This document shows positions 14,347 through 46,838 of a DNA stretch of 64,000 nt, in pieces. Source of the DNA: a virus (taxonomy: Duplodnaviria; Heunggongvirae; Uroviricota; Caudoviricetes); IMG/VR virus record IMGVR_UViG_3300020045_006153, positions 51,550-115,549 of that record; one strand, 5' to 3'. The first letter of the stretch is position 1, and every line of letters starts with the position of its first letter. Under the pieces are notes generated by a model. The model saw only the letters and a list, made by a program, of their open reading frames with translations, was not told where the DNA came from and ran no database searches. The position numbers and the translations under genes are program-made.

Positions 14347-14371
14347 ATAAAATATCGTTGTAATTCCTTTG

Positions 14372-14806: not shown

Positions 14807-14816
14807 TAAATATTTC

Positions 14817-21604: not shown

Positions 21605-22832
21605 AACACACTCATGCGACTTTTGCGGCAAAACAAAAGATAACGTAGAAAAATTAATAGTCGGAGAGTTCTCCGCAATCTGTAACGAATGTGTAGAATT
21701 ATGCGTTGGAATGCTAGACGATGACAAAGTTAAAAAGTTTCCAATTGGAGACAATAAACAAATATTCAATCCTACTAAAATTAAAGATTTCCTCGATACA
21801 TATGTTATCGGGCAAGACGATGCAAAAATTGCATTAAGCGTTGCAGTGTGTCAACACTTTAAACGTATACACAGCCCATCTAAGGATATTGAAATTGAAA
21901 AAACCAATGTTCTAATGCTCGGGCCCACGGGGTGTGGGAAGACTATGCTTGCGAAAAAACTAGCAGAATATTTAAACGTACCATTTGCGATCTGTGATGC
22001 TACTGGTATTACAGAAGCAGGTTATGTAGGCGACGATGTCGAAAGCGTACTACTACGATTGCTAAGTGCGGCAGATCAAGATGTTGAAAAAGCACAACAT
22101 GGTATTATCTATATTGACGAAATTGATAAACTTTCGAAGAAAGGTGAGAATGCATCTACTACTCGTGATGTGGGTGGAGAAGGGGTTCAACAAGCATTAT
22201 TGAAAATGGTCGAAGGTACTATTGCTCGTTTACCAGCCAGTGATAAACGCAAACATCCTCGAGGCGAAATGTTAGAAATGGATACTTCGGGTATTTTGTT
22301 TATTTGCGGCGGCGCATTTGTAGGTCTTGATAAAATTATCGAAAAACGAGCATCAAAATCGTCAGTTGGGTTTCATGCAGATATGAAAAAGAAAACTGAA
22401 ACAAATTATAAAGATGTTACAACTAAGGATTTAATTACATACGGATTGATTCCTGAATTTGTGGGACGATTTGGACTTATTACAAGTGTCGAAGAACTAG
22501 GAGTTCCTGACCTTGTTCGTATTCTAAGAGAGCCTAAAAATAGTTTAATTAAGCAGTATAAGCACCTATTTGATTTAGACGGTATTAAGTTAGAATTCGA
22601 CGAAAAAGCGTTGCAAATCGTGGCAGAAAAGGCGAAAAAGATGCAAACTAACGCACGTGGCCTCAAGAATATTCTAGAACAAGTATTACTACAGTATCAG
22701 TTCAATGCAGTTGATCTTGTTGAACGCGGGTTAAGCAAAATTGTAATCGGCGAAGATGCAGTTAATGGTAAAGCAGCATCTTTAGTATTCGATAAGAAGA
22801 AGGAAGTTAAGGCTGGTGAAAATACTGCTTGA
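21591..22832 (+). CDS. clpX: ClpX-like AAA+ ATPase (unfoldase)
   Basis: N-terminal C4 zinc-binding domain (CDFCGK...CNEC), Walker A GPTGCGKT, Walker B IIYIDEIDK, 413 aa. Confidence 0.85.
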   Translation: MEKNKTHSCDFCGKTKDNVEKLIVGEFSAICNECVELCVGMLDDDKVKKFPIGDNKQIFNPTKIKDFLDTYVIGQDDAKIALSVAVCQHFKRIHSPSKDIEIEKTNVLMLGPTGCGKTMLAKKLAEYLNVPFAICDATGITEAGYVGDDVESVLLRLLSAADQDVEKAQHGIIYIDEIDKLSKKGENASTTRDVGGEGVQQALLKMVEGTIARLPASDKRKHPRGEMLEMDTSGILFICGGAFVGLDKIIEKRASKSSVGFHADMKKKTETNYKDVTTKDLITYGLIPEFVGRFGLITSVEELGVPDLVRILREPKNSLIKQYKHLFDLDGIKLEFDEKALQIVAEKAKKMQTNARGLKNILEQVLLQYQFNAVDLVERGLSKIVIGEDAVNGKAASLVFDKKKEVKAGENTA

Positions 22833-25117: not shown

Positions 25118-25125
25118 TGGTAACA

Positions 25126-25151
25126 CTGCCTCTTTACAAGGGGCAGTTTTT
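25126..25151. terminator. intrinsic terminator (CTGCCTC-tttacaa-GGGGCAG + TTTT)
   Basis: 7-bp stem including G-U, then T-run. Confidence 0.5.
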
Positions 25152-25198
25152 CATGTATAATAAATACATGCAGCAAAGAGATAGACTTTTTGCACATA
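25133..25198 (+). promoter_or_regulatory. promoter TTTACA-17-TATAAT plus conserved leader hairpin GCAAAGAG-ataga-CTTTTTGC (copy 1)
   Basis: Same 45-nt element (TATAATAAATACATGCAGCRAAGAGATAGACTTTTYGCACAT) recurs at 35755-35797 with a compensatory A-T to G-C change in the stem. Confidence 0.55.
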
Positions 25199-25217
25199 AT
25201 TTACTTAGGATTTAAGT

Positions 25218-25484
25218 ATGACAAACAAATTTCAAACCCGAATTAAAGAACTGTTTCCTGAAAATGGAGTAATGTGTTTAACGGAAAGTAGTACACCAGA
25301 AGGTGTTGCGTATTACTATTCCGAAGAACAAGTTCAACGCCTTGCAGCATTGATTGTCAAAGAATGCATTGCTATCATCGATGATGTGTACGAACAAGCC
25401 GAGCCAGATCATGGATGCCACGACCGGGCTACATGGGCAACTAGTGACGACATCAAGTATATGTTTGGAGTGCAAGATGAATAA
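25218..25484 (+). CDS. hypothetical protein (first gene of the NadM transcription unit)
   Basis: 88 aa, ATGA overlap with nadM. Confidence 0.4.
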   Translation: MTNKFQTRIKELFPENGVMCLTESSTPEGVAYYYSEEQVQRLAALIVKECIAIIDDVYEQAEPDHGCHDRATWATSDDIKYMFGVQDE

Positions 25485-26505
25485 AAAATACGATACCCTT
25501 GTTCTAATTGGCCGGTTTCAACCAGTGCATAGTGCACACGTAGAAATTATTCAGCGCGCAGTTTCGCTAACAAAAGATCTAATTATTATTGTTGGATCGG
25601 CTGATCAACCTCGAACTTATAAGAATCCGTGGTCTTACAAAGAACGTGCAATGATGTTGAATAACGTGCTAGAGACAATTAATGTTGGCACAACTCGTGT
25701 TCACATCGAATCAAACGTTGATACAATTTATAACGATACTGCTTGGGTACGTCGAGTACAAGGTATTGTTTCTAAGTACAGGTGTCTCGGTGGACGCACT
25801 GGAATTATTGGTCACAAGAAAGACGAAAGTTCGTTCTATCTGGAAATGTTCCCTCAATGGGAATTCGAAAATGTAGATTTGATTCAACCGTTAAATGCTA
25901 GTAACGTGCGAGATCTGTATTTCCGTGAAGATGCAAATATGAATTTCTTGCGCTCTGTGATTCCGCAATCAACTTATCGCATGTTGGAAGGATGGTTTCA
26001 ATCGCCGGATCGTGCGCAAGTGATCAAAGAACGCGAGTTTGTTGCAAAATACAAAAAGCAATACGAATCACTGCCTTATCCTCCGATCTTTGTGACTGCA
26101 GATGCACTAGTTATTCAAAGCGGACACATTTTAATGGTGAAACGGCGTGCCGAACCCGGTAAAGGGTTGTGGGCTCTTCCTGGAGGATACGTAAATGCAT
26201 ATACTGATAAAAGTGTCGAGGATGCAATGATTCGAGAACTAAGAGAAGAAACTGGTATCAAAGTTCCGGCGCCTGTATTGCGTGGTAGCATTGTAGATCG
26301 CAAAGTGTTTGATGCAGTTGATCGCAGCCCTCGTGGCCGTATTATTACGCACACACATAAAATTGTATTGCCCGATGGTCCTTTAATTAAAGTAAAAGGA
26401 GCAGATGATGCTGAAAAAGCAGCAATGCGAGCAATCGCAGATATTCGAAGCGACGAATGCTTCGAAGATCATTATGAAATGGTACAATGGGGAGTAGGAG
26501 CATAA
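25477..26505 (+). CDS. nadM: bifunctional NMN adenylyltransferase / ADP-ribose pyrophosphatase (NadM-Nudix)
   Basis: N-terminal LVLIGRFQPVHSAH (H/TxGH nucleotidyltransferase motif) and C-terminal Nudix box GGYVNAYTDKSVEDAMIRELREETGI. ORF track starts at 25354, but ATG 25477 directly follows the upstream stop. Confidence 0.8.
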   Translation: MNKKYDTLVLIGRFQPVHSAHVEIIQRAVSLTKDLIIIVGSADQPRTYKNPWSYKERAMMLNNVLETINVGTTRVHIESNVDTIYNDTAWVRRVQGIVSKYRCLGGRTGIIGHKKDESSFYLEMFPQWEFENVDLIQPLNASNVRDLYFREDANMNFLRSVIPQSTYRMLEGWFQSPDRAQVIKEREFVAKYKKQYESLPYPPIFVTADALVIQSGHILMVKRRAEPGKGLWALPGGYVNAYTDKSVEDAMIRELREETGIKVPAPVLRGSIVDRKVFDAVDRSPRGRIITHTHKIVLPDGPLIKVKGADDAEKAAMRAIADIRSDECFEDHYEMVQWGVGA

Positions 26506-26506
26506 T

Positions 26507-26758
26507 ATGAAAACTGTTAACGTATGGGATATCCAAATCTGGGACGGCGGCGATAGGTGTAATCACGCATTTTATCTTTCTTCAAACGAAGAAGCGGAAA
26601 AATGGAAAGTCAACAATAAGTTTGATAATGTACAGGAACAAACATTTAAAATTTATGATACTATCGAAGAATACCGCGAAGGTAAATCAGAAGTAACACG
26701 ACAACGTGCACTTGCAAAATTGACACCAATTGAACGTATATCGCTAGGACTAGAATGA
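26507..26758 (+). CDS. hypothetical protein
   Basis: 83-aa ORF. Confidence 0.4.
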   Translation: MKTVNVWDIQIWDGGDRCNHAFYLSSNEEAEKWKVNNKFDNVQEQTFKIYDTIEEYREGKSEVTRQRALAKLTPIERISLGLE

Positions 26759-27072
26759 TCAATCGACTTTTTGAAATTAGTTGTACACCGACTAATAACT
26801 TTCCAGTACTTGCCCGTAATTCTAAAATTATGGAAGAACTCGGTGAGTTCAGTGAAGCACTACTACACAAATTAGGTATGTTGCCTCATAAAGAAATGAA
26901 GGAACCAATTGAAGGCGAAGCCGCAGATGTTATTATCTGCGTAATCGATGCACTTGCTGGAGCATATCCCGAAATGACTGCTGAGGGGTTAACCGGAATG
27001 TTGGAATTTCAACTTGGTAAGAAATCTCTAAAATGGAAAACTGTAATGGAGATACGTAATGAATCTACTTAA
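26755..27072 (+). CDS. mazG: MazG-like nucleotide pyrophosphohydrolase domain protein
   Basis: EELGEFSEA ... EEAADVIICVIDA (EExxE / DxxD all-alpha NTP-PPase motifs), 105 aa. Confidence 0.55.
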   Translation: MINRLFEISCTPTNNFPVLARNSKIMEELGEFSEALLHKLGMLPHKEMKEPIEGEAADVIICVIDALAGAYPEMTAEGLTGMLEFQLGKKSLKWKTVMEIRNEST

Positions 27073-27541
27073 TACACAATCACTTACTTATAAAGTAGGC
27101 CGGAAAACAAAAGGGCTTCGTGCCAAGCCGATAGTAACACTGTTAGTTGATCGCACAGTAATGGCAAAGTTTCTTGTGGACACGCTCGAAGCAAAAGAAC
27201 CAGTACACGCAGACGCTATGTTCTGCATTGGTGAAAGTAATGATGCTTGGCAGCAATCTGCAAAGAAATTGCTTGCAAAGTATACTGTAGAAGCGATCGA
27301 TTCCGACGGTTGGATGATATGCTATCCTAAGAAAGAAAATAGCGTTGAGTTTTCTCAACTTCCGGATACAACATATGGCGGTTACATTCAAGGCAACTGG
27401 GGAGAAACTGTAGAAGACATGCCAAATCTGCAACGCTATAAGCCAGGGGATTTTGTTGTGCGAAATCGTGAAGACCATACTGATACATGGATTGTCGATA
27501 AAAAGATTTTCCTGAACAGTTATACAGAGATTACAACATGA
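27059..27541 (+). CDS. hypothetical protein
   Basis: 160-aa ORF. Confidence 0.45.
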   Translation: MNLLNTQSLTYKVGRKTKGLRAKPIVTLLVDRTVMAKFLVDTLEAKEPVHADAMFCIGESNDAWQQSAKKLLAKYTVEAIDSDGWMICYPKKENSVEFSQLPDTTYGGYIQGNWGETVEDMPNLQRYKPGDFVVRNREDHTDTWIVDKKIFLNSYTEITT

Positions 27542-27621
27542 AAATTCATCAATCAAAAGTAGTGCGCGAGGCAACTGATTTAGATATTGCGGTATTTAAA
27601 GTTTAGCAGAATTGAAGAAAA

Positions 27622-27819
27622 GTGCATAAAACAAACTATAGGCCTTCTCGTAGTCAACAACTTGTAATTACCGAAATGATCAGAAACAAGTATTACGAGT
27701 CACATGACAATATTATTGTACATCATGTTCTCGAAGATTCGTTTCTGCGATTGTATGTTCAAATTGAACGACGCGGTTGGTCAGGTAGTAACATAGTGTT
27801 TGAAAGGTTAGAATTGTGA
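27622..27819 (+). CDS. hypothetical protein
   Basis: 65-aa ORF. Confidence 0.35.
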   Translation: MHKTNYRPSRSQQLVITEMIRNKYYESHDNIIVHHVLEDSFLRLYVQIERRGWSGSNIVFERLEL

Positions 27820-28016
27820 TACACCCAGATTATGTAGAATATGCAAAATATGTCGACGGCAAAAAAACAAACAAGAATCTCGTTGAAGACCTCACCCGGC
27901 TGCGCAATGAAATAGTTAGTGATGCCTTTGAAGGCAATCGTGTAAAAAATGCAGCATTGGCAATAGTAGTTTACAAAATTAACAGTTGCCTTGGTAAAGG
28001 ATATCCTCGGAGATGA
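27816..28016 (+). CDS. hypothetical protein
   Basis: 66-aa ORF. Confidence 0.35.
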   Translation: MIHPDYVEYAKYVDGKKTNKNLVEDLTRLRNEIVSDAFEGNRVKNAALAIVVYKINSCLGKGYPRR

Positions 28017-28339
28017 GTCACAAAGTTAAAATTAATCGTGATCAAATCACAATCGGACCTCAAGATCCGGATGCATTTGAAACAGCCTTTTGGGCTTTTC
28101 ATCTTAAAAAAGAAGGGTACATCAGGACTAGCAATGCATACTGTACAATTAGTCGCCCTGATCGAGATGACTGGATTGATCAATTAGCAATAAAAATGTT
28201 TTGCTGCAATGCTGATTTTTACATGAAAGACGGCACCGGTCCCTCAAAAGTATGGAAAGCACATTACGTAAGATCATATTCTGCTGATAAGCACACCGTG
28301 GCCCCAGAAATTCTTAGGAAAATACCTAGTTCCTATTGA
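28013..28339 (+). CDS. hypothetical protein
   Basis: 108-aa ORF. Confidence 0.4.
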   Translation: MSHKVKINRDQITIGPQDPDAFETAFWAFHLKKEGYIRTSNAYCTISRPDRDDWIDQLAIKMFCCNADFYMKDGTGPSKVWKAHYVRSYSADKHTVAPEILRKIPSSY

Positions 28340-28364
28340 CAAAGTAGGTAAAACCTGTTATAAT
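28336..28364 (+). promoter_or_regulatory. phage promoter class: TTGACA-N5-GGTAAAACCTGTT-ATAAT
   Basis: Conserved spacer element shared with sites near 30766, 39817, 41257 and 53992. Confidence 0.5.
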
Positions 28365-28393
28365 AGTGTATAGAAACAAACGGCGAGAGTAAC

Positions 28394-28651
28394 ATGACAC
28401 ATATGACTGCAGAAGACGCCCGTAAATTAACTGATTACGCGCATTCGATTGATAGCGATTATTTAAAAGAAGACACTGAAAAGATTTTAGAGTTCATTGC
28501 GGATGCTGCCCGGCACGGACAATCTAGTATGACATATAATCATTACGTTCACGATGTTATACGTCAACGCTTGATTAATCTCGGTTATACATATAAGTGG
28601 TATGACGGAATGAATTGGGAAGATACCGGTTATGCATCTATTTCTTGGTAA
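28394..28651 (+). CDS. hypothetical protein
   Basis: 85-aa ORF. Confidence 0.4.
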   Translation: MTHMTAEDARKLTDYAHSIDSDYLKEDTEKILEFIADAARHGQSSMTYNHYVHDVIRQRLINLGYTYKWYDGMNWEDTGYASISW

Positions 28652-28657
28652 TTAAAA

Positions 28658-28855
28658 ATGGTACGAATTGTAAAACAAGACCCACATCCTTCTGTAGTAA
28701 GGGAGGTAGTTTGTCGAAATTGTGGTGCCACACTAGAATATGTGCCCGCGGATGTAAAATCGAAATATGTGCGTGATTATGACGGATGCAGTGATACGTA
28801 TTCGCATATTATGTGTCCTAATTGTAGTAAACAAGTGAGTGTAAAAAATGGCTAA
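28658..28855 (+). CDS. small zinc-ribbon protein
   Basis: CRNCG ... CPNC pairs, 65 aa. Confidence 0.4.
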   Translation: MVRIVKQDPHPSVVREVVCRNCGATLEYVPADVKSKYVRDYDGCSDTYSHIMCPNCSKQVSVKNG

Positions 28856-29084
28856 TCCTCGAGTTAAAGAATTGATTTTTAGTGCTGCGCAATTTGCAGT
28901 AGATCATACTAGCAATAACGCCTCTGCGTATGAAGGTGTATTTTTGAGCAAGTATACAGATCTCATCATTGAAGAATGTTGTGAAGCACTGTGGACTGAA
29001 GAATGTCACACAAGTGACGTTGCATATATTGAATGGCTTGCGCAATGCAGCAAAATTAAAGACTCGTTAGGAGTATTGGCATGA
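28848..29084 (+). CDS. hypothetical protein
   Basis: 78-aa ORF. Confidence 0.4.
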   Translation: MANPRVKELIFSAAQFAVDHTSNNASAYEGVFLSKYTDLIIEECCEALWTEECHTSDVAYIEWLAQCSKIKDSLGVLA

Positions 29085-29680
29085 ATATAGTTGAACTAAT
29101 TTGGGGTGGATTGCTACAAACTACTCCGTTGGAATTATGGGCCAACGGCATGACCGCTGTCTGTATCTTCCTTGCAGGCCGCAATAACATCCACACTTGG
29201 TGGACAGGCATCGTTGCTTGTGTATTGTTTGGTTGGTTATTCTTTGGTGCTAACCTGTATGCTGATGTAACACTACAAGCGTTCTTTGTTGTTACTGGAG
29301 TGATTGGCTGGTACAATTGGGTTAAGAAAACCAATAATGTAGAAACGCCGGTTTCATATGCAAGTGGCCATCAAGTTGCGCGAATGGTCGCAATTGCAAT
29401 CGGAACAGCAATCGGATACGGATGGTTGCTGCATACTTTCACTAATGCATTCGCACCGTGGATTGATAGTACTGTACTCACGTTTAGTATTATTGCGCAA
29501 CTGTTGCTAATGACTCGCAAGGTGCAAAACTGGCCAATCTGGGTACTCGTTAACACGCTAAGTGTGCCGTTGTACTGGAGTCGAGAACTATATGTAACAT
29601 CTGCGCTGTACGCAGTATTTTGGGTAAATGCAATGTGGTCGTGGAAGACTTGGATTAATCTTGCTAAAGAAGAAAAATGA
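29081..29680 (+). CDS. pnuC: nicotinamide riboside transporter PnuC-like membrane protein
   Basis: 199 aa, 6-7 TM segments, Trp-rich (WxxN-type) motifs typical of PnuC. Sits inside the NAD cluster. Confidence 0.65.
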   Translation: MNIVELIWGGLLQTTPLELWANGMTAVCIFLAGRNNIHTWWTGIVACVLFGWLFFGANLYADVTLQAFFVVTGVIGWYNWVKKTNNVETPVSYASGHQVARMVAIAIGTAIGYGWLLHTFTNAFAPWIDSTVLTFSIIAQLLLMTRKVQNWPIWVLVNTLSVPLYWSRELYVTSALYAVFWVNAMWSWKTWINLAKEEK

Positions 29681-29868
29681 ACGAACACATTAAGGCATTG
29701 ATCAATCGATGCACTATAGATATTGAAACATTCGATTCTGAAATGTTTGTGGAATTGATTATGAAAGAATGTGTTGACTGTTGCTATCATATGGATAAAG
29801 ATAGTGGCCCCATTACCGCTGATTTGATTAAAATCAGAATTATGTCTCTGTTTGGAGTTGAAAAATGA
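29677..29868 (+). CDS. hypothetical protein
   Basis: 63-aa ORF. Confidence 0.35.
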   Translation: MNEHIKALINRCTIDIETFDSEMFVELIMKECVDCCYHMDKDSGPITADLIKIRIMSLFGVEK

Positions 29869-30122
29869 AATCACATGAACTAGCAAAGATGCTGCTTGAG
29901 TTTCCTGATGTTGAATTAATCTTGCAAAAAGATTCCGAAGGAAATGGATATTCTCCGTTGCGAGGTGTCGACTTTGATGTTGTGTATGTTGCCGATACCA
30001 CATGGCGCGGTGAAGTGTTTAACACAACACTTAATGCAGATGACAATTGCATGGAGGAAGAAGAATGGGAAGAACTGAAAAAGTCAAATCCCGGATATGC
30101 GGTGTTGTATCCAATTAACTAA
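29865..30122 (+). CDS. hypothetical protein
   Basis: 85-aa ORF. Confidence 0.4.
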   Translation: MKSHELAKMLLEFPDVELILQKDSEGNGYSPLRGVDFDVVYVADTTWRGEVFNTTLNADDNCMEEEEWEELKKSNPGYAVLYPIN

Positions 30123-30132
30123 AGAAATACAG

Positions 30133-30321
30133 ATGATAGATAAAGAATCAGCAGAACGATTAAAAGCGTTCATAACTGCAAACTTCATGGGGATAGCAAA
30201 CTATCGTACAGAAGGTGGGTGTGATACGTGCGGTTGGGGAGGCGACTCGTATTCAGAAGTAGACCTCGAAGGAGCACTATCTTTAGTAGACGAGTTCTTA
30301 AAATCAGAGGACAACAAATGA
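30133..30321 (+). CDS. hypothetical protein
   Basis: In-frame ATG 30133 of track ORF 30097..30321. Confidence 0.35.
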   Translation: MIDKESAERLKAFITANFMGIANYRTEGGCDTCGWGGDSYSEVDLEGALSLVDEFLKSEDNK

Positions 30322-30512
30322 AAATCAAACTCACCTTTAAAAGTCCTGATGCTGTTTCGGATGGTATTCTAGATGCAGGAATTAGTCAACGGACAAATCC
30401 AGACGAATACGACGAGTTGTATGAACAACTATCCGAATGGGTCCGTTACGGTGAATATATTGATGTTGAGTATGATACTGAAACAAAAGAAATGAAAATT
30501 CTAAAGAAGTAA
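30318..30512 (+). CDS. hypothetical protein
   Basis: In-frame ATG 30318 (MKIKLTF...) of track ORF 30228..30512. Confidence 0.35.
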   Translation: MKIKLTFKSPDAVSDGILDAGISQRTNPDEYDELYEQLSEWVRYGEYIDVEYDTETKEMKILKK

Positions 30513-30513
30513 T

Positions 30514-30762
30514 ATGTACAGATTTAAAACTCGCGAAGAAGCCCTTGTTGCTGCTAATGCAGAAGGTGAGGAACTAATGAAGAACGACAATTATGTCGAG
30601 TTTGAAGGTATGAATTGTAACGATTATCTAGATGATTTTTCCATAGAATGCGAGGGTTGGGACGGTGCTAGCCGTAGGTGTGACTGCGGACATCGTCGTG
30701 TTAGTTGGGAACTATTGGGTAGTGATGCATCTGGCTGGGATTATTTTGCTTGTGCATATTAG
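30514..30762 (+). CDS. hypothetical Cys-containing protein
   Basis: 82-aa ORF. Confidence 0.4.
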   Translation: MYRFKTREEALVAANAEGEELMKNDNYVEFEGMNCNDYLDDFSIECEGWDGASRRCDCGHRRVSWELLGSDASGWDYFACAY

Positions 30763-30765
30763 GGG

Positions 30766-30796
30766 TTAACAACACAGGTAAAACCTGTTTTATTAT
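30766..30796 (+). promoter_or_regulatory. phage promoter class variant: TTAACA-N5-GGTAAAACCTGTT-TTATTAT
   Basis: Shares the GGTAAAACCTGTT element. Confidence 0.4.
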
Positions 30797-30862
30797 GATT
30801 AGTGTATCAAAATTCTCAGTAATACACCGGCGATAAGATAGAAGAGCACTTTGGAGTAAAGA

Positions 30863-31219
30863 ATGACTAAAGAAATTACAGTTGATATATTGGACGCAAT
30901 TAAAGTCCAATGGCTGGCGCAGATATTTGAAGATGATTTTCCCGAGCGAGGAATGGTTGCCTGGTTTACAGGAGTAGAGTGGGAAAATAAAAACGAATGT
31001 TATAAACTATATTTCGACTTTAAAGAGTTCGAAGAAGTAAATGACAAATACTTCCGTGAAGTGTACTACTCAAATACTCCTGGAAAGTTAGTAACTGCTA
31101 AAGTTGCAAATCAGTATACATCTAAATATTCGGTCTATTTTAGTTGCGGTGATTTTACAACTCGAAACGATGCTGCATTTGCAGAAGAAATTAAAAAGTT
31201 TTTAAAGGTTATAGAATAA
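30863..31219 (+). CDS. hypothetical protein
   Basis: 118-aa ORF. Confidence 0.45.
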   Translation: MTKEITVDILDAIKVQWLAQIFEDDFPERGMVAWFTGVEWENKNECYKLYFDFKEFEEVNDKYFREVYYSNTPGKLVTAKVANQYTSKYSVYFSCGDFTTRNDAAFAEEIKKFLKVIE

Positions 31220-31413
31220 TGCTTAAAGATCGACGTGCTCTCATGGAGCAAGAAATTGAAAAACAGAAGAAAGCATGTGGAGCATTGTACCTATGCATTA
31301 TCCGAGGCGAATCCGGATTTTCTAATCTATACAATAATGAAAAAGAACGGTTGTCAGAAATGCTAACCGAAATGATAATTGTCGATCAGATGATTAAAGA
31401 CGGGCATCAATAA
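31219..31413 (+). CDS. hypothetical protein
   Basis: 64-aa ORF. Confidence 0.4.
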   Translation: MLKDRRALMEQEIEKQKKACGALYLCIIRGESGFSNLYNNEKERLSEMLTEMIIVDQMIKDGHQ

Positions 31414-31437
31414 TAGAATTAATACACAGAGTAACAC

Positions 31438-31614
31438 ATGTTGAAAATGATTTTAGTATTTTTAATTACATTTTCTGTAATTTATGGAGGGATTGAAATT
31501 GTTCGATCGCTAACTAAATTGAAAAAATTGAAGTTGACAAAGACCGCAGGATATGCTATAATTATAGCAACAGTAACAACACTGTTTTTATCAACAATTG
31601 TATTTTTATTTTAA
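31438..31614 (+). CDS. small two-TM membrane protein (holin-like topology, speculative)
   Basis: 58-aa ORF MLKMILVFLITFSVIYGG...IIIATVTTLFLSTIVFLF, below the track cut-off. Confidence 0.3.
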   Translation: MLKMILVFLITFSVIYGGIEIVRSLTKLKKLKLTKTAGYAIIIATVTTLFLSTIVFLF

Positions 31615-31621
31615 GGATTAT

Positions 31622-32428
31622 ATGAATCGTACTATTAAACTCGCCTTTGCCATTATCTCTGTCGCAATGTTTGCATCTGGCTGCACTCGTATCACTACAG
31701 GCGAAGTTGGCGTTCGTGTTAACGCTTCTAAAGAAGTGCAGGGCGCTGAACTGATGCCCGGATCGTGGAACCAAACATTGGTAGGCGAGGTACTTACGTT
31801 TCCTACTAAAGATATTTCAGTTAGTGTAGAAAATAAAACGCCAATGACTGCAGATAATTCTGCATTGGCAGATTTCGACATTACTGTGGTGTATGGTATT
31901 AATCCGACAAGTGTGTCTGAACTCTACACAACGAAATCGAAAAGTTTCCATACGTATGATGAAAAAGAAAATGATACAATGTTGATGTACAACTATATCA
32001 CTACATTGGTAAACAATGCTGCCTATAAAGTAGTTCGAGAATACAAATCTCTCGAAGTTGCGGATAACCGAGCAAAGATTGAGCAGCAAATTCGCGAAGT
32101 GGTTGCCGAACAACTGAAGTCTGAAAAGTTGGATACATCCATTACGCTAACTGTTGTGCAAATTCGAAATATTCTACCTAATGCAGATATTCTTGCTTCA
32201 GCAACTGCTTATGTTAAGTCGCAAAATGATTTGAAAATCAAGCAGACTGAAGTAGATATTGCTAAAAAAGAATCCGAACGTATGGCCGCACTGAGTGCTA
32301 ATTCAGCACAGTCGATTGCATATATGAATGCACAGGCTGCACTTAACATCTCCGAAGGTGTAAAGAACGGTAAAGTGCAAACCATTATCATTCCAAGTAC
32401 TATGACTGGTTTGATGATTGGTAAGTAA
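31622..32428 (+). CDS. lipoprotein (lipobox MFASGC), possibly SPFH/band-7-like
   Basis: In-frame ATG 31622 with RBS. Signal peptide plus Cys lipobox. 268 aa. Confidence 0.45.
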   Translation: MNRTIKLAFAIISVAMFASGCTRITTGEVGVRVNASKEVQGAELMPGSWNQTLVGEVLTFPTKDISVSVENKTPMTADNSALADFDITVVYGINPTSVSELYTTKSKSFHTYDEKENDTMLMYNYITTLVNNAAYKVVREYKSLEVADNRAKIEQQIREVVAEQLKSEKLDTSITLTVVQIRNILPNADILASATAYVKSQNDLKIKQTEVDIAKKESERMAALSANSAQSIAYMNAQAALNISEGVKNGKVQTIIIPSTMTGLMIGK

Positions 32429-32575
32429 TATCAATTAACTAAGAATAGAATGGCTACGCAAAGAGTAGCCATTCTTATATAGAAATATAAAATGATAGTA
32501 TACGAAGTAAAAGGTTCAACAAGCCTACAGTAAGTGTGAATTTGAAATTGAAGAAAAATACCTAAGAGACAACTA

Positions 32576-33577
32576 ATGAAATATGCAACTGGATTAGTAG
32601 TGGGTAAATTTTGTCCTCTGCACAAGGGACACGAATTGCTAATCAGCACTGCACTAAGCCAGTGCAATCGTGTTGTTATTCTTTCTTACACTTCACAAGA
32701 ATTTGAAGGTTACGAAGTTGAAAAAAGAGAACAATGGATTAAACTCATGTACCCTAAAGCAATTGTAAAGGTATTATCTCCACATGAAGTACCAGATGAT
32801 GATGCGCCTGCAGAATTTCATCGACTATTTTGTGCCGATCATCTCCTTAATGTAATGAATACTACTGTACAGGCAGTGTTCACTTCAGAAGATTACGGAG
32901 ACGGCTTTGCAGAATATCTCAGCAAATACTTTTCAGAAAATCTTAGCACAGAAATCACAGTAGATCACGTGCTTGTAGATAAAGAAAGGATACAGTTTCC
33001 AGTGTCGGGTACTTATATTAGAGAATCAATTGCAAATGGCAATATTCCTGTTACATTACATCCGTATGTGTTTAGGGATTTTGTTAAACGTGTTGCGTTT
33101 TTGGGCGGAGAATCATCGGGCAAAACAACGCTAACAACAGCATTAGGTCGCCGAACAAACATACAATGGGTATTAGAATACGGCCGTGAATTGTACGACG
33201 ATCGTACTGGCAAGTTAAATTACGAAGACATGGAGTTTATAGCCAAGACGCAGATAGGCAGAGAAAATCGGAGCAGGCAAGAACAATATATGTTTTGTGA
33301 TACTACTCCATTGACTACAAAATTCTATAGTGAGCAACTGTTTAACCGTGTCTCTCCCGCACTAGAAAAAATGTCGCAACGCGAGTACTACAAAATTTAT
33401 TTGTGTTCTCCGGACATTAATTTTGAGCAGGACGGCACAAGGCGTGATTCTACATTTAGAACGGTAGGACACAATTGGTATGTTAAGTACTTGACAGCAC
33501 ACAATATACCGTATACAATAGTACAAGGTTCTCTAGAAGAACGCATTGATTTTGTTATGAAAGATTTAGGATTATGA
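32576..33577 (+). CDS. nadR: NadR-like bifunctional NMN adenylyltransferase / ribosylnicotinamide kinase (no HTH domain)
   Basis: N-terminal VVGKFCPLHKGHE nucleotidyltransferase motif and central Walker A GGESSGKTT of the RNK domain, 333 aa. Confidence 0.7.
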   Translation: MKYATGLVVGKFCPLHKGHELLISTALSQCNRVVILSYTSQEFEGYEVEKREQWIKLMYPKAIVKVLSPHEVPDDDAPAEFHRLFCADHLLNVMNTTVQAVFTSEDYGDGFAEYLSKYFSENLSTEITVDHVLVDKERIQFPVSGTYIRESIANGNIPVTLHPYVFRDFVKRVAFLGGESSGKTTLTTALGRRTNIQWVLEYGRELYDDRTGKLNYEDMEFIAKTQIGRENRSRQEQYMFCDTTPLTTKFYSEQLFNRVSPALEKMSQREYYKIYLCSPDINFEQDGTRRDSTFRTVGHNWYVKYLTAHNIPYTIVQGSLEERIDFVMKDLGL

Positions 33578-33903
33578 GCGAACGCCAAATGTTAGTGGAT
33601 GTAGTTACACAATGCAAACTCAATTTGCAACTTGCAGAATCACAATTGTATAAGTTTGATACTTTAGCAGAAAATAATGTATTTGAAACATTAAAAATTG
33701 CTGAATCAAAACTTAGCGATTTGTTGCGTGAACGTGCACACGAAGATTGCGAAGGTGCATATAATTGCGGTGATGAAGAATACAGTCAAGAATTTATAGT
33801 TGACAACGAAAAGTACATTGCTATTGCCACAATTGAGTATAACAGGCACGATAAAACATATTACTATGTTGACTATTTTAATATTAAGATTGAAAAACTA
33901 TGA
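33574..33903 (+). CDS. hypothetical protein
   Basis: 109-aa ORF. Confidence 0.45.
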   Translation: MSERQMLVDVVTQCKLNLQLAESQLYKFDTLAENNVFETLKIAESKLSDLLRERAHEDCEGAYNCGDEEYSQEFIVDNEKYIAIATIEYNRHDKTYYYVDYFNIKIEKL

Positions 33904-34067
33904 ATATTTTTGAAAGAGAATATTCGGGTGAATCTATTATTGATTTATGTGAAGATTTAAGTTGGATGTTTTCAGATGGTAATGGAGCCAAAGTGCCATC
34001 TGACGAATATGGAATTCAGCGAGGTACATTTACTGTAACAGTAACTTGGAAAGAAGATGAAGAATGA
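33900..34067 (+). CDS. small hypothetical protein (55 aa)
   Basis: ATGA-overlapped small ORF filling the gap. Confidence 0.25.
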   Translation: MNIFEREYSGESIIDLCEDLSWMFSDGNGAKVPSDEYGIQRGTFTVTVTWKEDEE

Positions 34068-34654
34068 ATACAACTGAAAAATTAAAATTAGCCGCAGAAG
34101 CAGGCGTTAAATTGCCGCATATTACAAATACAACTAACCCAATTGATTTCCCAATGAACACAAAAGACAGTTATTTAATTCATGATAAGGGCAATTTGCT
34201 CGACCTTGCAGAAGCACATCGATTTGATGTAGTTGTACAAGGTTGCAACTGTTTCAACACAATGGGCGGAGGCATTGCACGAGAAATTAAAACTCGGTAT
34301 CCGCATGTTGCAGCAGTTGATGCAGCAACTGTACGAGGCGACTATAATAAACTAGGCAACTGGACTAGTGAAAGTGTTGAAACTGAAATTCAACAAGGCG
34401 ATCAATTTGATATCATCAATGCGTATACTCAATACGATATGAGCACAGGCGAAGATGTATTTGAGTACGCAGCATTTGCACTAATTCTGCAAAAACTTGC
34501 ACATTGCTATCCAGATGGAACACGCTACGGATTCCCATATATCGGCATGGGACTTGCAAAAGGCGACTCGGTGCTTATTATTAGCATGTTAGAAGATTTT
34601 GCTGAAAAAGTTTCTAATAAAGGTGGGAGCGTTACGCTTGTAGAATTTGCATAA
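34064..34654 (+). CDS. macro domain protein (ADP-ribose binding/hydrolase-like)
   Basis: FDVVVQGCNCFNTMGGGIAREI resembles the macro-domain Gly-rich ADP-ribose-binding loop, 196 aa. Confidence 0.5.
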   Translation: MNTTEKLKLAAEAGVKLPHITNTTNPIDFPMNTKDSYLIHDKGNLLDLAEAHRFDVVVQGCNCFNTMGGGIAREIKTRYPHVAAVDAATVRGDYNKLGNWTSESVETEIQQGDQFDIINAYTQYDMSTGEDVFEYAAFALILQKLAHCYPDGTRYGFPYIGMGLAKGDSVLIISMLEDFAEKVSNKGGSVTLVEFA

Positions 34655-34857
34655 TGCAGATTGTAAAACCATTATTGATTAGAGACTTTTTACATTGGCA
34701 ACATGTCAAAGTCTCTAGTCTGCCGTGGGCATCTCGAGACGCTAGAAAACAGTGGCTATCGGAAAATGGTTCCGATAATAGAGTAGTTTGCGGTTTCACA
34801 CGATATTGGTTTGAAAACGAAAAAGATGCAATGTTGTTTATATTGAAGTGGACATGA
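34654..34857 (+). CDS. small protein of the ...DAxLFxLKW paralog family (distant member)
   Basis: C-terminus YWFENEKDAMLFILKWT. Confidence 0.5.
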   Translation: MQIVKPLLIRDFLHWQHVKVSSLPWASRDARKQWLSENGSDNRVVCGFTRYWFENEKDAMLFILKWT

Positions 34858-35102
34858 TGAACGTTTATTATGAATATGCCCCTGCTGTGACTGCGAGTTT
34901 AGGCATTACCCACTTGTATTGGGCAAGATATAATGTCGATGACGGTTACACTGTAGATTTTACCTCTATGCGATTTTCTAATCGAGTTTGGGTAGAGGAC
35001 GAATTCAAGATCAAATATATCAAATACCGATGGGATTCGCCAGCACCGGCAGTAGACCTAAAAGAATTCATGTGGGTTAAGTTACGGAGCAAAGAATTAT
35101 GA
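34848..35102 (+). CDS. hypothetical protein
   Basis: 84-aa ORF. Confidence 0.4.
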   Translation: MDMMNVYYEYAPAVTASLGITHLYWARYNVDDGYTVDFTSMRFSNRVWVEDEFKIKYIKYRWDSPAPAVDLKEFMWVKLRSKEL

Positions 35103-35494
35103 AAATCGGAATTACAGGTACGCGGCGTGGTATAACTGATTATCAACGCGACGAAATTACTAAACTACTCAACGAATTGTATTCAGTAAACTCGGAATTG
35201 CATCACGGCGATTGCGTAGGAGCAGACGCCACTGTTGCAGATATTGCAAATGAGTTAGGTTACATTATTGTATGTCATCCTCCTACTAAAGACTCTCTTA
35301 GAGCGTTTCGCAGAGCAGATCAAATACGTATACCTACATCGTATTTTTCCCGTAATAGGAATATTGTGAATGACACTGATGTATTACTAGTAGTGCCTTT
35401 TCAAACGTCACCTCAATCAACTGGTGGTACCTGGTATACATATGATTATGCCCTAAAGGTAGGCAAGCCCGTACACATCATTTATCCAAAGTAA
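35099..35494 (+). CDS. Rossmann-like nucleotide-processing protein (SLOG/DprA-like fold, tentative)
   Basis: GITGTRRG ... HHGDCVGAD motif pattern, 131 aa. Confidence 0.3.
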   Translation: MKIGITGTRRGITDYQRDEITKLLNELYSVNSELHHGDCVGADATVADIANELGYIIVCHPPTKDSLRAFRRADQIRIPTSYFSRNRNIVNDTDVLLVVPFQTSPQSTGGTWYTYDYALKVGKPVHIIYPK

Positions 35495-35496
35495 TT

Positions 35497-35739
35497 ATGG
35501 AAGTTATTGTATCTTGTGGCAACGGTGGCGATTGGGAATGGTATAACGACCAGTACTTGTGGCAATTGTGGATTGAACAAAATATAACAACTGAGTTCAA
35601 CACCGGCTCAGGAATTCATGTTAAGGCAGACGAACTTGCAGTGCGTTTTAAAAATCCATCTCACGCAACAATTTTTACTTTAAAGAGGCCAATGTGGATT
35701 ACGCATCACGATGTTATATTACCAAAACCAGTTGACTAA
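35497..35739 (+). CDS. hypothetical protein
   Basis: 80-aa ORF. Confidence 0.4.
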   Translation: MEVIVSCGNGGDWEWYNDQYLWQLWIEQNITTEFNTGSGIHVKADELAVRFKNPSHATIFTLKRPMWITHHDVILPKPVD

Positions 35740-35797
35740 CAATAGTTAATGTAGTATAATAAATACATGCAGCGAAGAGATAGACTTTTCGCACATT
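35732..35797 (+). promoter_or_regulatory. promoter TTGACT-17-TATAAT plus conserved leader hairpin GCGAAGAG-ataga-CTTTTCGC (copy 2)
   Basis: Second copy of the 45-nt leader element seen at 25156-25198; precedes nadV. Confidence 0.55.
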
Positions 35798-35815
35798 TAT
35801 ATAAAGGATTTTTAT

Positions 35816-37276
35816 ATGTCAAAACTTAATAGCATTATAACCGATACCGATTCTTACAAGGTATCAATGTGGAAACAATACCCAGCAGGAACAGAATATG
35901 TCTATTCTTACATCGAATCCCGTGGTGGCAAATATGATCGAACAGAATTTCTCGGGGTACAGGCTCTCGCAAAGTATCTTGCGACACCGATTACGCAAGA
36001 ACAAATTGATTATGCAGAGAAAATTTGGACTCTGCACGGAGAGCCGTTCAACCGCGAAGGTTGGCAATACATCCTTGATCAACATGAAGGCAAGTTACCT
36101 TTGCGGATTCGCGCAGCCAAGGAAGGCCTTATCATTCCGACTAAAAACGTCCTCTGCACAATCGAAAATACTGATCCAAACTGCTTCTGGCTCACAACTT
36201 GGGTGGAAACAGCGGCGCTACGTGCAATCTGGTATCCTACCACTGTCGGAACTACTTCGTGGCATATTAAGCAAGAAATTCTAAACTACCTGGAGAAGTC
36301 TGGTGACCCTACTACTATTGCTTTCAAGCTTCACGACTTTGGCGCTCGCGGTGTTTCTTCTGGAGAAAGCGCAGGGATCGGTGGTGCAGCGCACCTGGTT
36401 AACTTCATGGGCACCGACACTATTTCTGGTGTCCTCTATGCCATGGATGTATATGGTGGTGACGTTTGTGGATACAGTATCCCAGCCGCAGAACACAGCA
36501 CCATCACAAGTTGGGGTCGTGCACACGAAGTAGACGCTTACCGCAATATGGTCAAGCAGTTCGGCAAGCCTGGCGCTATCCTTGCTGTGGTTAGCGACTC
36601 ATACGATATTTACAAAGCCTGTGAAATGTGGGGAACGGAACTAAAAAATGATGTTATCAATTCTGGCGCAACTGTTGTTATCCGCCCTGACTCTGGCGAC
36701 CCTGTGGTGGTTGTGCCTAAAATGCTCAGAATCCTTTCTGAAAAGTTTGGGTATACCACCAACGCAAAAGGATATAAGGTACTTAATAACGTTCGCGTCA
36801 TTTGGGGCGACGGTATTAACAGTGTTAGCTTATCCAGTATTCTTCGCTGTGTAGTTGATGTAGCAGGATACTCTACAGACAATATTGCATTTGGTATGGG
36901 CGGCGGATTGTTGCAACAATGTGACCGTGATACACTGCAATTTGCTATGAAGTGTTCTTCGATTGGTATTCGTGAAGTTCCTGCAACATACGATCCAACT
37001 GCACAAGAAGAAAACACTGACGGTTCTGTGCTTGTATGGCGTGATGTATTCAAAGACCCTAGTACCGACCCCGGCAAGGCTTCTAAGAAGGGTCGTGTGA
37101 CATTGTGGACAAACGGTGCGCCACAAGGTACTGAATACGAAACCGCAGTCGACTGTCCTACACGCTGGACTGACAAAGGATTTGCTTGGAATGATGCAAT
37201 GGAAACGTATTTTGAAGACGGTGAAGTAAAGTTCACACAACCCTTTGAAGAAGTACGGACTAACAGCAATCTATGA
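35816..37276 (+). CDS. nadV: nicotinamide phosphoribosyltransferase (Nampt/NadV)
   Basis: 486 aa, characteristic type-II PRTase length and motifs (GTDTISG-like region, FGMGGGLLQ). Confidence 0.85.
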   Translation: MSKLNSIITDTDSYKVSMWKQYPAGTEYVYSYIESRGGKYDRTEFLGVQALAKYLATPITQEQIDYAEKIWTLHGEPFNREGWQYILDQHEGKLPLRIRAAKEGLIIPTKNVLCTIENTDPNCFWLTTWVETAALRAIWYPTTVGTTSWHIKQEILNYLEKSGDPTTIAFKLHDFGARGVSSGESAGIGGAAHLVNFMGTDTISGVLYAMDVYGGDVCGYSIPAAEHSTITSWGRAHEVDAYRNMVKQFGKPGAILAVVSDSYDIYKACEMWGTELKNDVINSGATVVIRPDSGDPVVVVPKMLRILSEKFGYTTNAKGYKVLNNVRVIWGDGINSVSLSSILRCVVDVAGYSTDNIAFGMGGGLLQQCDRDTLQFAMKCSSIGIREVPATYDPTAQEENTDGSVLVWRDVFKDPSTDPGKASKKGRVTLWTNGAPQGTEYETAVDCPTRWTDKGFAWNDAMETYFEDGEVKFTQPFEEVRTNSNL

Positions 37277-37746
37277 TTGAAATTAAATCCCCTGCTAAAC
37301 TAGAGTGGGATATTTTTAACGGTGCAATCTTTCTGGGAGGCTCAATTGAAATGGGTCTCGCAGAAGATTGGCAACCGAAACTTATTGCAGAACTTGCTAA
37401 TTACGAAATTGCAGTGTTGAATCCCCGTAGGGATAATTGGGATCCAACATGGGTGCAATCAATTAAGAATCCAAAGTTTAAAGAACAAGTACAATGGGAA
37501 CTTAGTGCAATTGATCATGCAAACATTGTTGTATTCTATTTTGATCCTGACACCAAATCACCTATTACCTTAATGGAACTAGGATTGTGTGCAGGACAAG
37601 GTAGTAAAACTATTGTATGCTGCCCCGACGGTTACTGGAGAAAAGGTAACGTAGAAATTCTATGTGAGATGTACAATATTAAATTAGTTGAAACATTTAA
37701 CGATTTTGTAACAGAGATTAAATTAGCACTGCTAGTCATTTACTAA
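37273..37746 (+). CDS. nucleoside 2-deoxyribosyltransferase-like protein
   Basis: IFLGGSIEMG and ITLMELGLCAG motifs in a roughly 157-aa flavodoxin-like protein. Confidence 0.45.
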   Translation: MIEIKSPAKLEWDIFNGAIFLGGSIEMGLAEDWQPKLIAELANYEIAVLNPRRDNWDPTWVQSIKNPKFKEQVQWELSAIDHANIVVFYFDPDTKSPITLMELGLCAGQGSKTIVCCPDGYWRKGNVEILCEMYNIKLVETFNDFVTEIKLALLVIY

Positions 37747-38712: not shown

Positions 38713-39768
38713 ATGTCTTATTTTATCAAAAGCGGAAATACTTACAAAGTATCGTCTGAAGAAGCAGTTGATCTACACCACACACTACCCGCAGGTAATT
38801 ACATTATCAAAGTAGATATGTTCGGAGGAATGTTTCTTGAACACATCGACAACTTCGAATTCAAGAGCAAACGCTACGGCGATAATATTAAGAATACCGA
38901 TCGTATCATGAACACATTTAAGTCTCGTGATATGAGCACTGGTATTATGCTTGCTGGAGAAAAAGGCTCTGGAAAATCTCTTCTTGCAAAAAGTCTATCA
39001 ATGGCAGCATACGAAGAAGGTATGCCCACTATTGTTATTAATTCGCCCTATAAAGGTGATAATTTCAACAAATTGATTCAAGACATTAGCCAACCGTGTG
39101 TTGTGTTGTTTGATGAATTTGAAAAAGTGTATGACAAAGACGATCAAGAAGAAATTCTTACTCTGCTTGATGGTGTGTTCCCCTCAAAGAAACTGTTTAT
39201 CCTTACTTGTAACGACAAATGGCGTATCGATTCGCACATGCGTAATCGCCCAGGCCGTATCTATTACATGATCGACTTTAAGGGACTTAGCGCAGAGTTC
39301 ATTACTGAATATTGCAAAGACAACTTGAATGACAAGTCGCACATCGACAAAATTTGTTCCATTGCTTCGTTGTTCTCAGAGTTTAACTTTGACATGCTTA
39401 AAGCGTTAGTTGAAGAAATGAATCGTTACAACGAGTCCCCACAAGAATCTCTGAAAATGCTTAACGCTAAACCAGAATTCGACGGCGGTAGCAAATACGA
39501 TGTTACCTTCGAACTCAACGGTGTTACGCAAGATACGAGCGTTTATGAGCCAGTGACGTTCAATGGTAATCCGCTAAACGGAACGCTGCATCTTGAATAC
39601 TCTACTGGAATTGATGAAAACATCGAATGGATTAACGAAAAACTTACTCAAGAAGACTTAGTTAAAATTATGCCCACACAAGGTGTGTTTGAATTTGCTA
39701 AAGGCAGCGGAATTAAAGTTAGACTAACTAAGTTAAAAGAAAAAGTATTCAACTTCGATGCTTTTTAA
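38713..39768 (+). CDS. AAA+ family ATPase
   Basis: Walker A GEKGSGKS, Walker B VVLFDEFE, 351 aa. Confidence 0.55.
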   Translation: MSYFIKSGNTYKVSSEEAVDLHHTLPAGNYIIKVDMFGGMFLEHIDNFEFKSKRYGDNIKNTDRIMNTFKSRDMSTGIMLAGEKGSGKSLLAKSLSMAAYEEGMPTIVINSPYKGDNFNKLIQDISQPCVVLFDEFEKVYDKDDQEEILTLLDGVFPSKKLFILTCNDKWRIDSHMRNRPGRIYYMIDFKGLSAEFITEYCKDNLNDKSHIDKICSIASLFSEFNFDMLKALVEEMNRYNESPQESLKMLNAKPEFDGGSKYDVTFELNGVTQDTSVYEPVTFNGNPLNGTLHLEYSTGIDENIEWINEKLTQEDLVKIMPTQGVFEFAKGSGIKVRLTKLKEKVFNFDAF

Positions 39769-46761: not shown

Positions 46762-46838
46762 GCGCTGGTAGCCTAGATGGTAAGGGCAGTTGCCTCTAAA
46801 ACAACAAGTAGTGGGTTCGAATCCCATCCAGCGCGCCA
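46762..46838 (+). tRNA. tRNA with anticodon CUA (amber/UAG suppressor; Gln/Trp-type scaffold, G73 discriminator, encoded CCA)
   Basis: Cloverleaf: acceptor GCGCTGG/CCAGCGC, D-stem GCCT/GGGC, anticodon stem GTTGC/ACAAC (one C-A mismatch), loop CT-CTA-AA with U33, 5-nt variable loop, T-arm GTGGG-TTCGAAT-CCCAT. Confidence 0.75.

Follow-up and report, generated by a model that had tools for sequence, protein, structure and literature searches.

An island of NAD- and ADP-ribose-related genes lies at 25.4-37.7 kb of a 64,000-nt stretch of DNA (the window) from the virus record IMGVR_UViG_3300020045_006153, of which it covers positions 51,550 to 115,549. With a probability of roughly 0.75, the island is read as an early-region island of a jumbo phage that serves NAD+ reconstitution and in which a NARP2-type route (NadV with a NadM-Nudix protein) and a NARP3-type route (a PnuC-like transporter with an NadR-like enzyme lacking the helix-turn-helix (HTH) domain) would be accompanied by proteins that handle ADP-ribose (ADPR). 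The NadM-Nudix, MazG-like, PnuC, HTH-less NadR-like, macro domain, NadV and deoxyribosyltransferase-like genes listed in an initial annotation of this DNA are all present, on the plus strand and at or near their proposed positions. Beyond that list, the island also contains a SLOG protein (35099..35494) and a Band7/SPFH protein (31598..32428). Domain scans of the 64-kb window found no NAD/ADP-ribose domains outside the island, and contigs of related phages show the arrangement again; the clustering of these genes is therefore not due to chance. All features described below are on the plus strand unless stated otherwise.

The source of the DNA is taken to be an uncultivated jumbo phage of ~353 kb, because a 353,233-bp Joint Genome Institute (JGI) metagenome contig carries an identical macro protein and the contigs of relatives measure 237-364 kb. 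Coding density in the window is 94%, with genes nearly all on one strand. Encoded within it are virion and tail-spike-like proteins, a class I ribonucleotide reductase, rIIA (41319..43517) and rIIB (43520..44596), the island ending just upstream of the latter two. A megablast search of 50,697 phage records with the island gave no match, and the closest cultured protein matches are 57% for NadV (Acidovorax phage ACP17) and 31% for rIIA; thus no cultured relative is usable for annotation transfer.

The NARP2-type pair is formed by NadM-Nudix and NadV. NadM-Nudix (347 aa, 25462..26505), a nicotinamide mononucleotide (NMN) adenylyltransferase (NMNAT) fused to a Nudix hydrolase, is identified by Pfam (CTP_transf_like 1.2e-12 and NUDIX 1.4e-15), by PHROG (phrog_395, 8e-70), by NCBIfam and by PDB matches to the solved NadM-Nudix proteins of Synechocystis (2qjo, 2.7e-75) and Francisella (2qjt, 6e-61). 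Its translation, which begins at the ATG at 25462, contains both the GRFQPVHSAH motif and the Nudix core RELREETG. Position 25133, from which the initial annotation had begun the island, does coincide with a promoter-like match and is not the start of nadM. NadV (486 aa, 35816..37276) is a predicted nicotinamide phosphoribosyltransferase of the Nampt clade, with Pfam matches to NAPRTase (6e-52) and NAMPT_N (1e-26), an NCBIfam PRK09198 score of 578 bits against a cut-off of 405, and PDB matches to Xanthomonas Nampt (1e-155, 522 bits) and human NAMPT (1e-115, 389 bits). As a member of this clade it would be expected to use nicotinamide and phosphoribosyl pyrophosphate (PRPP). NadM precedes NadV by 9.3 kb on the same strand, a spacing due to the other genes that intervene. 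Namat, the corresponding enzyme of NARP1, was considered for NadV and ruled out by score ranking (9e-61 and 209 bits to SpbetaL1 Namat) and by the lack of Adps in the window, in which domain scans found no PRPS-like Adps domain, the remainder of the ~353-kb genome lying beyond view. Since NadV belongs to the Nampt clade and Adps is absent from the window, the pair is assigned to NARP2 and not to NARP1, and is the known phage NAD-reconstitution pair that the initial annotation had taken it for.

The NARP3-type pair comprises PnuC and the NadR-like protein. The PnuC-like nicotinamide riboside transporter (199 aa, 29081..29680) matches PF04973 at 6.5e-45 over profile positions 2-174 of 175, phrog_1880 at 3e-28 and TIGR01528 at 84 bits, passing a cut-off of 42 bits, and is 34% identical to the PnuC proteins of phage KVP40 and of a Caulobacter phage. 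The NadR-like protein (333 aa, 32576..33577), a putative bifunctional NMNAT and ribosylnicotinamide kinase, matches AAA_28 at 2.4e-29 (the kinase domain, residues 172-323) and phrog_3462 at 3e-49; its alignment to the E. coli-type NadR model, of 411 positions, runs from 64 to 387. Because its NMNAT motif begins at residue 5 and the nucleotidyltransferase signature GKFCPLHKGH already occupies residues 10-19, the protein has no HTH domain; this signature is conserved, as are GGESSGKT and DGTR. Its best PDB match, at 7e-28 and ~31% identity, is 9x6f, the structure of the NARP3 enzyme Bas30_86, whose NMNAT-site residues K10, F11, P84, F110, S112 and D115 are all conserved in the NadR-like protein of the window. 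The logic of two precursors, nicotinamide and nicotinamide riboside, follows from the characterised homologues, much as had been proposed. The analogy with Pasteurellaceae salvage drawn at the same time holds as far as the shared PnuC/NadR enzymology is concerned and adds nothing further.

The macro domain protein (196 aa, 34064..34654), of the Poa1p/DarG-like class, is unmatched in a Pfam search at 0.01 and matches phrog_335 at 4e-31. A profile built from 37 macro homologues identifies Poa1p as the best match in the PDB (2.6e-7), followed by YmdB-, BT1257- and TARG1-type macros, and Poa1p is also the best match of the single sequence. The top Foldseek matches of the AlphaFold2 model (predicted local distance difference test (pLDDT) score 77.6) are all macro domains, with TM-scores of up to 0.68, and are led by Poa1p and the DarG macro (5m3i), both at 1e-6; NCBIfam adds a weak DarG match (0.0012). 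The loops NC..GGGIA and IGMGLA are invariant in the 37 homologues, with N62, G68-G70 and G161-G163 the invariant positions. Residues H23 and S30 of Poa1p correspond to Q59 and T66 in the window macro, and histidine occurs at the first of these positions in some homologues. Profile searches thus bear out the domains named in the initial annotation, PnuC through PF04973, NadR through AAA_28 and the macro domain, which fails in Pfam, through homologue profile and fold. The macro protein is a candidate ADPR-1''-phosphate phosphatase similar to Adpp of phages. Because it is closest to Poa1p, the family to which Adpp belongs, it suggests the recycling of products no less than the destruction of signals; the clearing of ADPR-derived immune signals, proposed earlier, is a hypothesis.

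Two further proteins of the island belong to superfamilies associated with nucleotides. The SLOG-superfamily protein (131 aa, 35099..35494), a YpsA/DprA/LOG-like Rossmannoid, has weak Pfam matches to YAcAr, cpYpsA and DprA (~0.005-0.009) and matches phrog_289 at 7e-9. Its AlphaFold2 model (pLDDT 95.6) retrieves TM1055, Moco carrier protein, DprA, LOG and ShosA in Foldseek (E ~2e-5, TM-scores 0.65-0.76), and the glycine-rich loops GxTGxR and GGT are present. A sequence profile found no match in the PDB, so the assignment rests on the fold search. The nucleoside 2-deoxyribosyltransferase-like (NDT-like) protein (157 aa, 37273..37746), of the PF15891 family in the DrHyd superfamily, has a start that overlaps the stop of nadV (ATGA). 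It matches PF15891 at 4e-37 (127 bits against a 30-bit cut-off), phrog_30579 at 1e-47 and, in the PDB, the uncharacterised protein 4mcj, its sole solved relative, at 6e-19. The motifs FLAGSIEMG and SPITLMELG are invariant among ten homologues, including the glutamate of ELG, E102. The N-terminal GSIEMG loop may resemble the loop that binds phosphate in nucleotide-specific members such as DNPH1. By superfamily, the SLOG and NDT-like proteins would be enzymes that cleave or exchange N-glycosidic bonds, or nucleotide binders.

Conservation of gene order can be garnered from 80 related IMG/VR loci (L001-L080), with NadV 60-91% identical to that of the window, onto which the island proteins were mapped; accessory genes were counted as present when within 10 kb of NadV. 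NadM is found in 77 of the 80 loci, at the same place upstream of NadV and in two clades, one ~65% identical to the window protein (56 loci) and one ~34% identical (21 loci). The macro gene occurs in 44 loci, and is present in 41 of the 56 with the NadM clade of the window compared with 2 of the 21 with the other clade. In 36 loci its place is between NadM and NadV, and in 26 the distance from its end to NadV downstream is below 110 bp. The typical arrangement in relatives is a compact NadM-macro-NadV cassette of ~2-2.5 kb. Other island genes are less frequent: Band7 occurs within the 10 kb in 13 loci, SLOG in four, full-length NadR in two (L009 and L014) and PnuC in one, and the NDT-like gene flanks NadV in nine. 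Apparent NadR genes beside NadV in L004, L005 and L013 were rejected, since the matches span 10% of the query at the shared NMNAT motif and the genes are those of the second, ~34% identical NadM-Nudix clade.

The closest relative, L014 (NadV 91% identical), has NadM, PnuC, NadR, macro, SLOG and NadV inside 10 kb. The expanded NadM-NadV interval of the window and of L014 adds PnuC, NadR, SLOG and a conserved 160-aa protein (27059..27541 in the window). In another relative, L084, the interval holds a MazG-like gene (69% identical to that of the window), a small membrane ORF (open reading frame), Band7 (85% identical) and the 160-aa protein; macro, PnuC and NadR were not found there in the mapping of island proteins. 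Because the intervals of relatives recur with the same few genes, the NadM-NadV interval is a hotspot that repeatedly holds one small gene set. The 160-aa protein lies inside this interval in every locus examined, and it is 77-81% identical in L002, L014 and L084; its overall range of 77-87% exceeds the ~65% of the neighbouring NadM. Searches of Pfam, PHROG and the PDB with it were all empty, and its homologues, 110 among 5.8 billion proteins, are metagenomic.

Promoter-like sites in the island, by which are meant solely pattern-scan matches to a sigma-70-like consensus, lie at five positions. One upstream of nadM (25133..25161, TTTACA-17-TATAAT, 11/12) is overlapped by a terminator-like hairpin at 25125..25147. 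A perfect 12/12 match with a TG element (28336..28364) lies upstream of the block that contains pnuC, another perfect match (31534..31562) ahead of Band7, one at 33491, and an 11/12 match (35732..35760) upstream of nadV. These five matches, together with the position of the island just upstream of rIIA and rIIB, suggest early transcription by the host polymerase in several units rather than as one operon.

Taken together, the gene set could supply NAD+ by two routes. In the NARP2-type route, NadV would join nicotinamide and PRPP to give NMN, which the NMNAT half of NadM would adenylate to NAD+. In the NARP3-type route, nicotinamide riboside imported by PnuC would be phosphorylated to NMN by the NadR-like enzyme and then adenylated to NAD+ by the same protein. 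The ADPR-handling proteins would most likely recycle or remove what NADases produce: the Poa1p-like macro may remove the phosphate from ADPR-1''-phosphate, which RES-type NADases generate, to leave ADPR, and the Nudix half of NadM, the only ADPR consumer in view, may split ADPR into AMP and ribose-5-phosphate. In NadM-Nudix proteins, Nudix activity on ADPR gives AMP and ribose-5-phosphate, the latter a precursor of PRPP. Host Prs could return ribose-5-phosphate to PRPP for use by NadV. The net effect would be that NAD+ is kept available when host defences of the SIR2, TIR, SEFIR and RES types deplete it. The island is a further example of large phages stacking several NAD+-restoring routes, and it shows that NARP3-type genes are not confined to Enterobacteriaceae phages but occur in an uncultivated ~350-kb phage group as well.

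A more specific and, on balance, doubtful proposal is that NadM-Nudix, the Poa1p-like macro and NadV, sometimes with SLOG and the NDT-like protein, constitute a 'NARP2 with associated phosphatase' cassette, which would convert NADase products into AMP and ribose-5-phosphate and so refill PRPP and ATP. In this phage the cassette would have captured NARP3 genes as well, giving an island with three inputs (nicotinamide, nicotinamide riboside and ADPR products). If so, recycling into PRPP and ATP precursors would lower the metabolic cost of NARP2 and explain how phages afford it, and two different reconstitution pathways would have acquired an ADPR-1''-phosphate phosphatase independently of each other. 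The NDT-like gene that overlaps nadV and the conserved 160-aa protein are candidates for further steps.

Both routes have characterised counterparts. NARP2, which consists of Nampt and NMNAT-Nudix, has as its prototype NadV/NatV of Vibrio phage KVP40 (Lee et al. 2017, Osterman et al. 2024). The window resembles it in that a large phage with rIIA and rIIB encodes, in its early region and on one strand, a Nampt-clade NadV and a NadM-type NMNAT/Nudix protein, and resembles KVP40 further in that small ORFs lie between its nadR-like and pnuC genes. It differs from the prototype in that its NadV is only ~44% identical to the KVP40 type and in the 9.3 kb between NadM and NadV. In KVP40, where nadR (KVP40.0211) and pnuC (KVP40.0215) have been annotated since 2003, these two genes are three small ORFs apart, a shorter separation than in the window, and in KVP40-like phages NadR, PnuC and NadV lie inside ~18 kb of one early region. 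A phage NadR-PnuC operon was noted by Osterman et al. as a likely additional pathway. NARP3 itself consists of the PnuC-like Bas30_87 and the HTH-less NadR-like Bas30_86, which together, and neither alone, restored NAD+ and cancelled Sir2-HerA and DSR1 defence (Sci Adv 2026, PMC13464706). Both protein types are present in the window, and its NadR-like protein, with Bas30_86 the best homologue of solved structure, is likewise HTH-less and combines an NMNAT with a kinase domain. The window departs from NARP3 in its ~31% identity, in two kinase-site residues left unmatched in alignment, in having the genes 2.9 kb apart where NARP3 is defined by an adjacent two-gene operon, and in belonging to a phage outside the host group of the Enterobacteriaceae-type T5-like phages.

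The combination of NARP2 and NARP3 genes is not new, being already found in phages such as KVP40; in 2020, NadV, NatV, NadR and PnuC were likewise reported for a jumbo phage of Ochrobactrum. In a survey by Iyer, Burroughs, Anantharaman and Aravind (2022), NadR was described as possibly co-occurring with NadM and NadV in large phages, and Macro, NADAR, SLOG and Nudix were described as co-occurring in jumbo and medium phages, with a predicted role in processing soluble ADPr derivatives (PMC9503650). The view in the initial annotation that the module surpasses the described NadV/NadM pair in completeness is thus outdated, given the publication of NARP3, the KVP40 and Ochrobactrum phage gene sets and the 2022 survey. 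In the part of that survey considered here, the neighbour named for NadM/NadV is NADAR and not Macro, and a NadV-coupled deoxyribosyltransferase-like (DrHyd) gene was not found discussed. A phage macro of the Poa1p-like type, Adpp of Vibrio phage Gary, converts the RES-type NADase product ADPR-1''-phosphate to ADPR, which in the pathway NARP1-AP feeds Adps (bioRxiv 10.64898/2026.01.28.702374). By its published description, Gary Adpp is comparable to the window macro, which stands alone, has yeast Poa1p as its nearest characterised relative and lies inside an NAD-reconstitution cassette; the partner of the window macro is NARP2 (NadM/NadV) and not NARP1 (Adps/Namat). A literature search found a conserved NadM-macro-NadV cassette described nowhere, the only published link of such a macro being to NARP1. 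The NadM-macro-NadV cassette may be new, as may the insertion of NARP3-type genes within a NARP2 cassette in the window and its closest relative; the overlap of the NDT-like gene with nadV is a further point of interest. A macro homologue 36% identical to that of the window occurs in Escherichia phage EmilieFrey (L081, MZ501063.1 56875..58441), where it adjoins a 'putative phosphoribosyltransferase' and a HAD-like protein. This neighbourhood may be a NARP1-AP-like arrangement; a Namat gene was not located in the 8.4 kb of EmilieFrey examined.

Several observations weigh against an NAD+ reconstitution island of two routes with ADPR handling. Support for the functions of the island is homology throughout. 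NadM-Nudix, at 1.6e-108 to the NCBIfam family PRK05379, falls slightly under the equivalog cut-off, and the NadR-like protein is likewise under that of TIGR01526 (2.9e-37, covering 3-323 of 325). The kinase-essential residues E230 and D275 of Bas30_86 align here to G and Y, in an alignment of ~30% identity with nearby indels. Between the end of pnuC at 29680 and the start of the nadR-like gene at 32576 lie 2.9 kb with ~12 ORFs and the promoter-like site at 31534; the corresponding gap in L014 is ~0.8 kb. The MazG-like, Band7 and 160-aa proteins have no known role in NAD metabolism. Since the 80 loci come from related phages, the association of macro with NadV is in part a matter of inheritance rather than of repeated selection. 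NARP2 alone already defeats aRES with no phosphatase, so that an ADPR-1''-phosphate phosphatase beside NARP2 would not be strictly needed against aRES. Finally, no function can be assigned to ~28 of the ~38 ORFs in the interval, and the island is therefore a loose one and not a tight operon.

This last point, three-quarters of the ORFs being unassigned, also favours an explanation in which there is no integrated module at all: the interval would be a hypervariable early-gene hotspot with NadM and NadV as the sole functional pair and the other genes acting separately. Consistent with this, the promoter-like sites divide the interval into units, accessory content varies among relatives, as the low counts for PnuC, full-length NadR, SLOG and the NDT-like gene attest, and L084 carries the MazG-like, Band7 and 160-aa genes with neither macro nor the NARP3-type pair. 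The genes of the hotspot are, however, strongly enriched for NAD/ADPR chemistry that was found nowhere else in the window. Macro tightly adjoins NadV in 26 loci, the NDT-like start overlaps the nadV stop, and PnuC needs a kinase such as NadR, neither NARP3 gene working alone. The absence of any integrated module is judged unlikely. An explanation confined to part of the gene set is that macro, and perhaps SLOG and the NDT-like protein, act on macromolecular ADP-ribosylation or on nucleotide or DNA modification, for example in DarT-type reversal or as a (deoxy)nucleotide N-glycosidase. The tie of the DarG macro with Poa1p as top fold match and the weak NCBIfam DarG match agree with such a role, as does the range of nucleotides on which relatives of PF15891 and SLOG act, the SLOG member DprA binding DNA; T4-like phages are described as having orphan antitoxin-like enzymes that counter DarTG (PMC11825919). 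The best sequence matches of macro, by single sequence and by profile, are nevertheless to Poa1p, its conserved placement, with NadM on one side and NadV on the other, speaks for NAD chemistry on small molecules, and Adpp, the tested phage macro of this type, is an ADPR-1''-phosphate phosphatase. A macromolecular target is judged distinctly unlikely.

General metabolic augmentation, with no counter-defence function, is somewhat unlikely as an account of the island. Under it, NAD+ would serve the replication of a ~350-kb genome (for example NAD-dependent ligase, dehydrogenases and the NAD-dependent sugar epimerases at 58.7-61.7 kb), and environmental nicotinamide riboside would be exploited in nutrient-poor hosts. 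The KVP40 pathway was first presented as functional NAD+ salvage, reportedly with no mention of defence (Lee et al. 2017), NARP2 overproduces NAD+ even without a defence system, and the window carries ribonucleotide reductase and NAD-dependent epimerase genes. Against this, homologous NARP2 and NARP3 cassettes have been found experimentally to restore NAD+ and to overcome SIR2-HerA, DSR, Thoeris and aRES, and the macro, SLOG and Nudix proteins nearby, as handlers of NADase products, fit a setting of conflict better. Metabolic augmentation and counter-defence are not mutually exclusive, and NAD+ reconstitution with a probable anti-defence purpose is the preferred reading.

Other genes of the interval include a MazG-like protein (105 aa, 26755..27072), assigned with moderate confidence as a putative all-alpha NTP pyrophosphohydrolase from a match to phrog_1247 (3e-11 over ~44 residues) and weak PDB matches to YpjD/MazG (0.03); Pfam and NCBIfam searches with it were empty. 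A small ORF with two transmembrane segments by hydropathy (31438..31614) is followed by the Band7/SPFH protein (PF01145, 9e-18). One ORF inside the NAD island (34654..34857) belongs to an apparent paralogous family of eight small ORFs that share the C-terminal motif (Y/F)F..E(K/R)D....F.LKW. The members lie mostly at 54.9-58.4 kb, the others being at 54877..55206, 55197..55415, 55614..55823, 56577..56945, 57602..57835, 57832..58104 and 58101..58355.

Downstream of the island, an AAA+ ATPase (38713..39768; phrog_2376, 1.6e-93) has its counterpart directly downstream of NadV in 38 of the 80 related loci. Microbacterium phage Pumpernickel encodes a protein that shares 54% identity with it, in a transfer RNA (tRNA) array near an ADP-ribosyltransferase and RtcB, and homologues are found in phage CBB, 7 kb from NadR-PnuC, and in EmilieFrey, 2 kb from the phosphoribosyltransferase-macro pair. 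Membership of the ATPase in the module was rejected, as the protein is a generic AAA+ and the Pumpernickel and CBB homologues sit in tRNA arrays.

Elsewhere in the window, a tRNA with anticodon CUA, of the amber-suppressor type and labelled tRNA-Pyl by ARAGORN, lies at 46762..46838. TAG is the stop of only 6 of the 115 called ORFs. Amber recoding of the window was considered and rejected, since the standard code already gives 94% coding and reading TAG as sense barely alters ORF lengths or density. ARAGORN also predicts a permuted transfer-messenger RNA (tmRNA) with the tag ANDSVYALAA at 14326..14827, which partially overlaps ORF starts or ends at 14346 and 14817. A ClpX-like ATPase with the ClpX zinc finger (21591..22832; AAA_2 6e-29, zf-C4_ClpX 7e-13) and a ClpS adaptor (58407..58709; 5.6e-27) are present, and no ClpP was seen in the domain scans of the window. 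The sole minus-strand block (58676..63925) is a sugar-nucleotide cluster that includes a DegT-type aminotransferase, split thiamine pyrophosphate (TPP)-dependent E1/transketolase-like proteins, three NAD-dependent epimerase/dehydratase-like proteins and a dTDP-4-dehydrorhamnose 3,5-epimerase. A 465-aa protein at 51659..53056 matches DUF2828 and DUF7788 (1.4e-49 and 4.9e-29).

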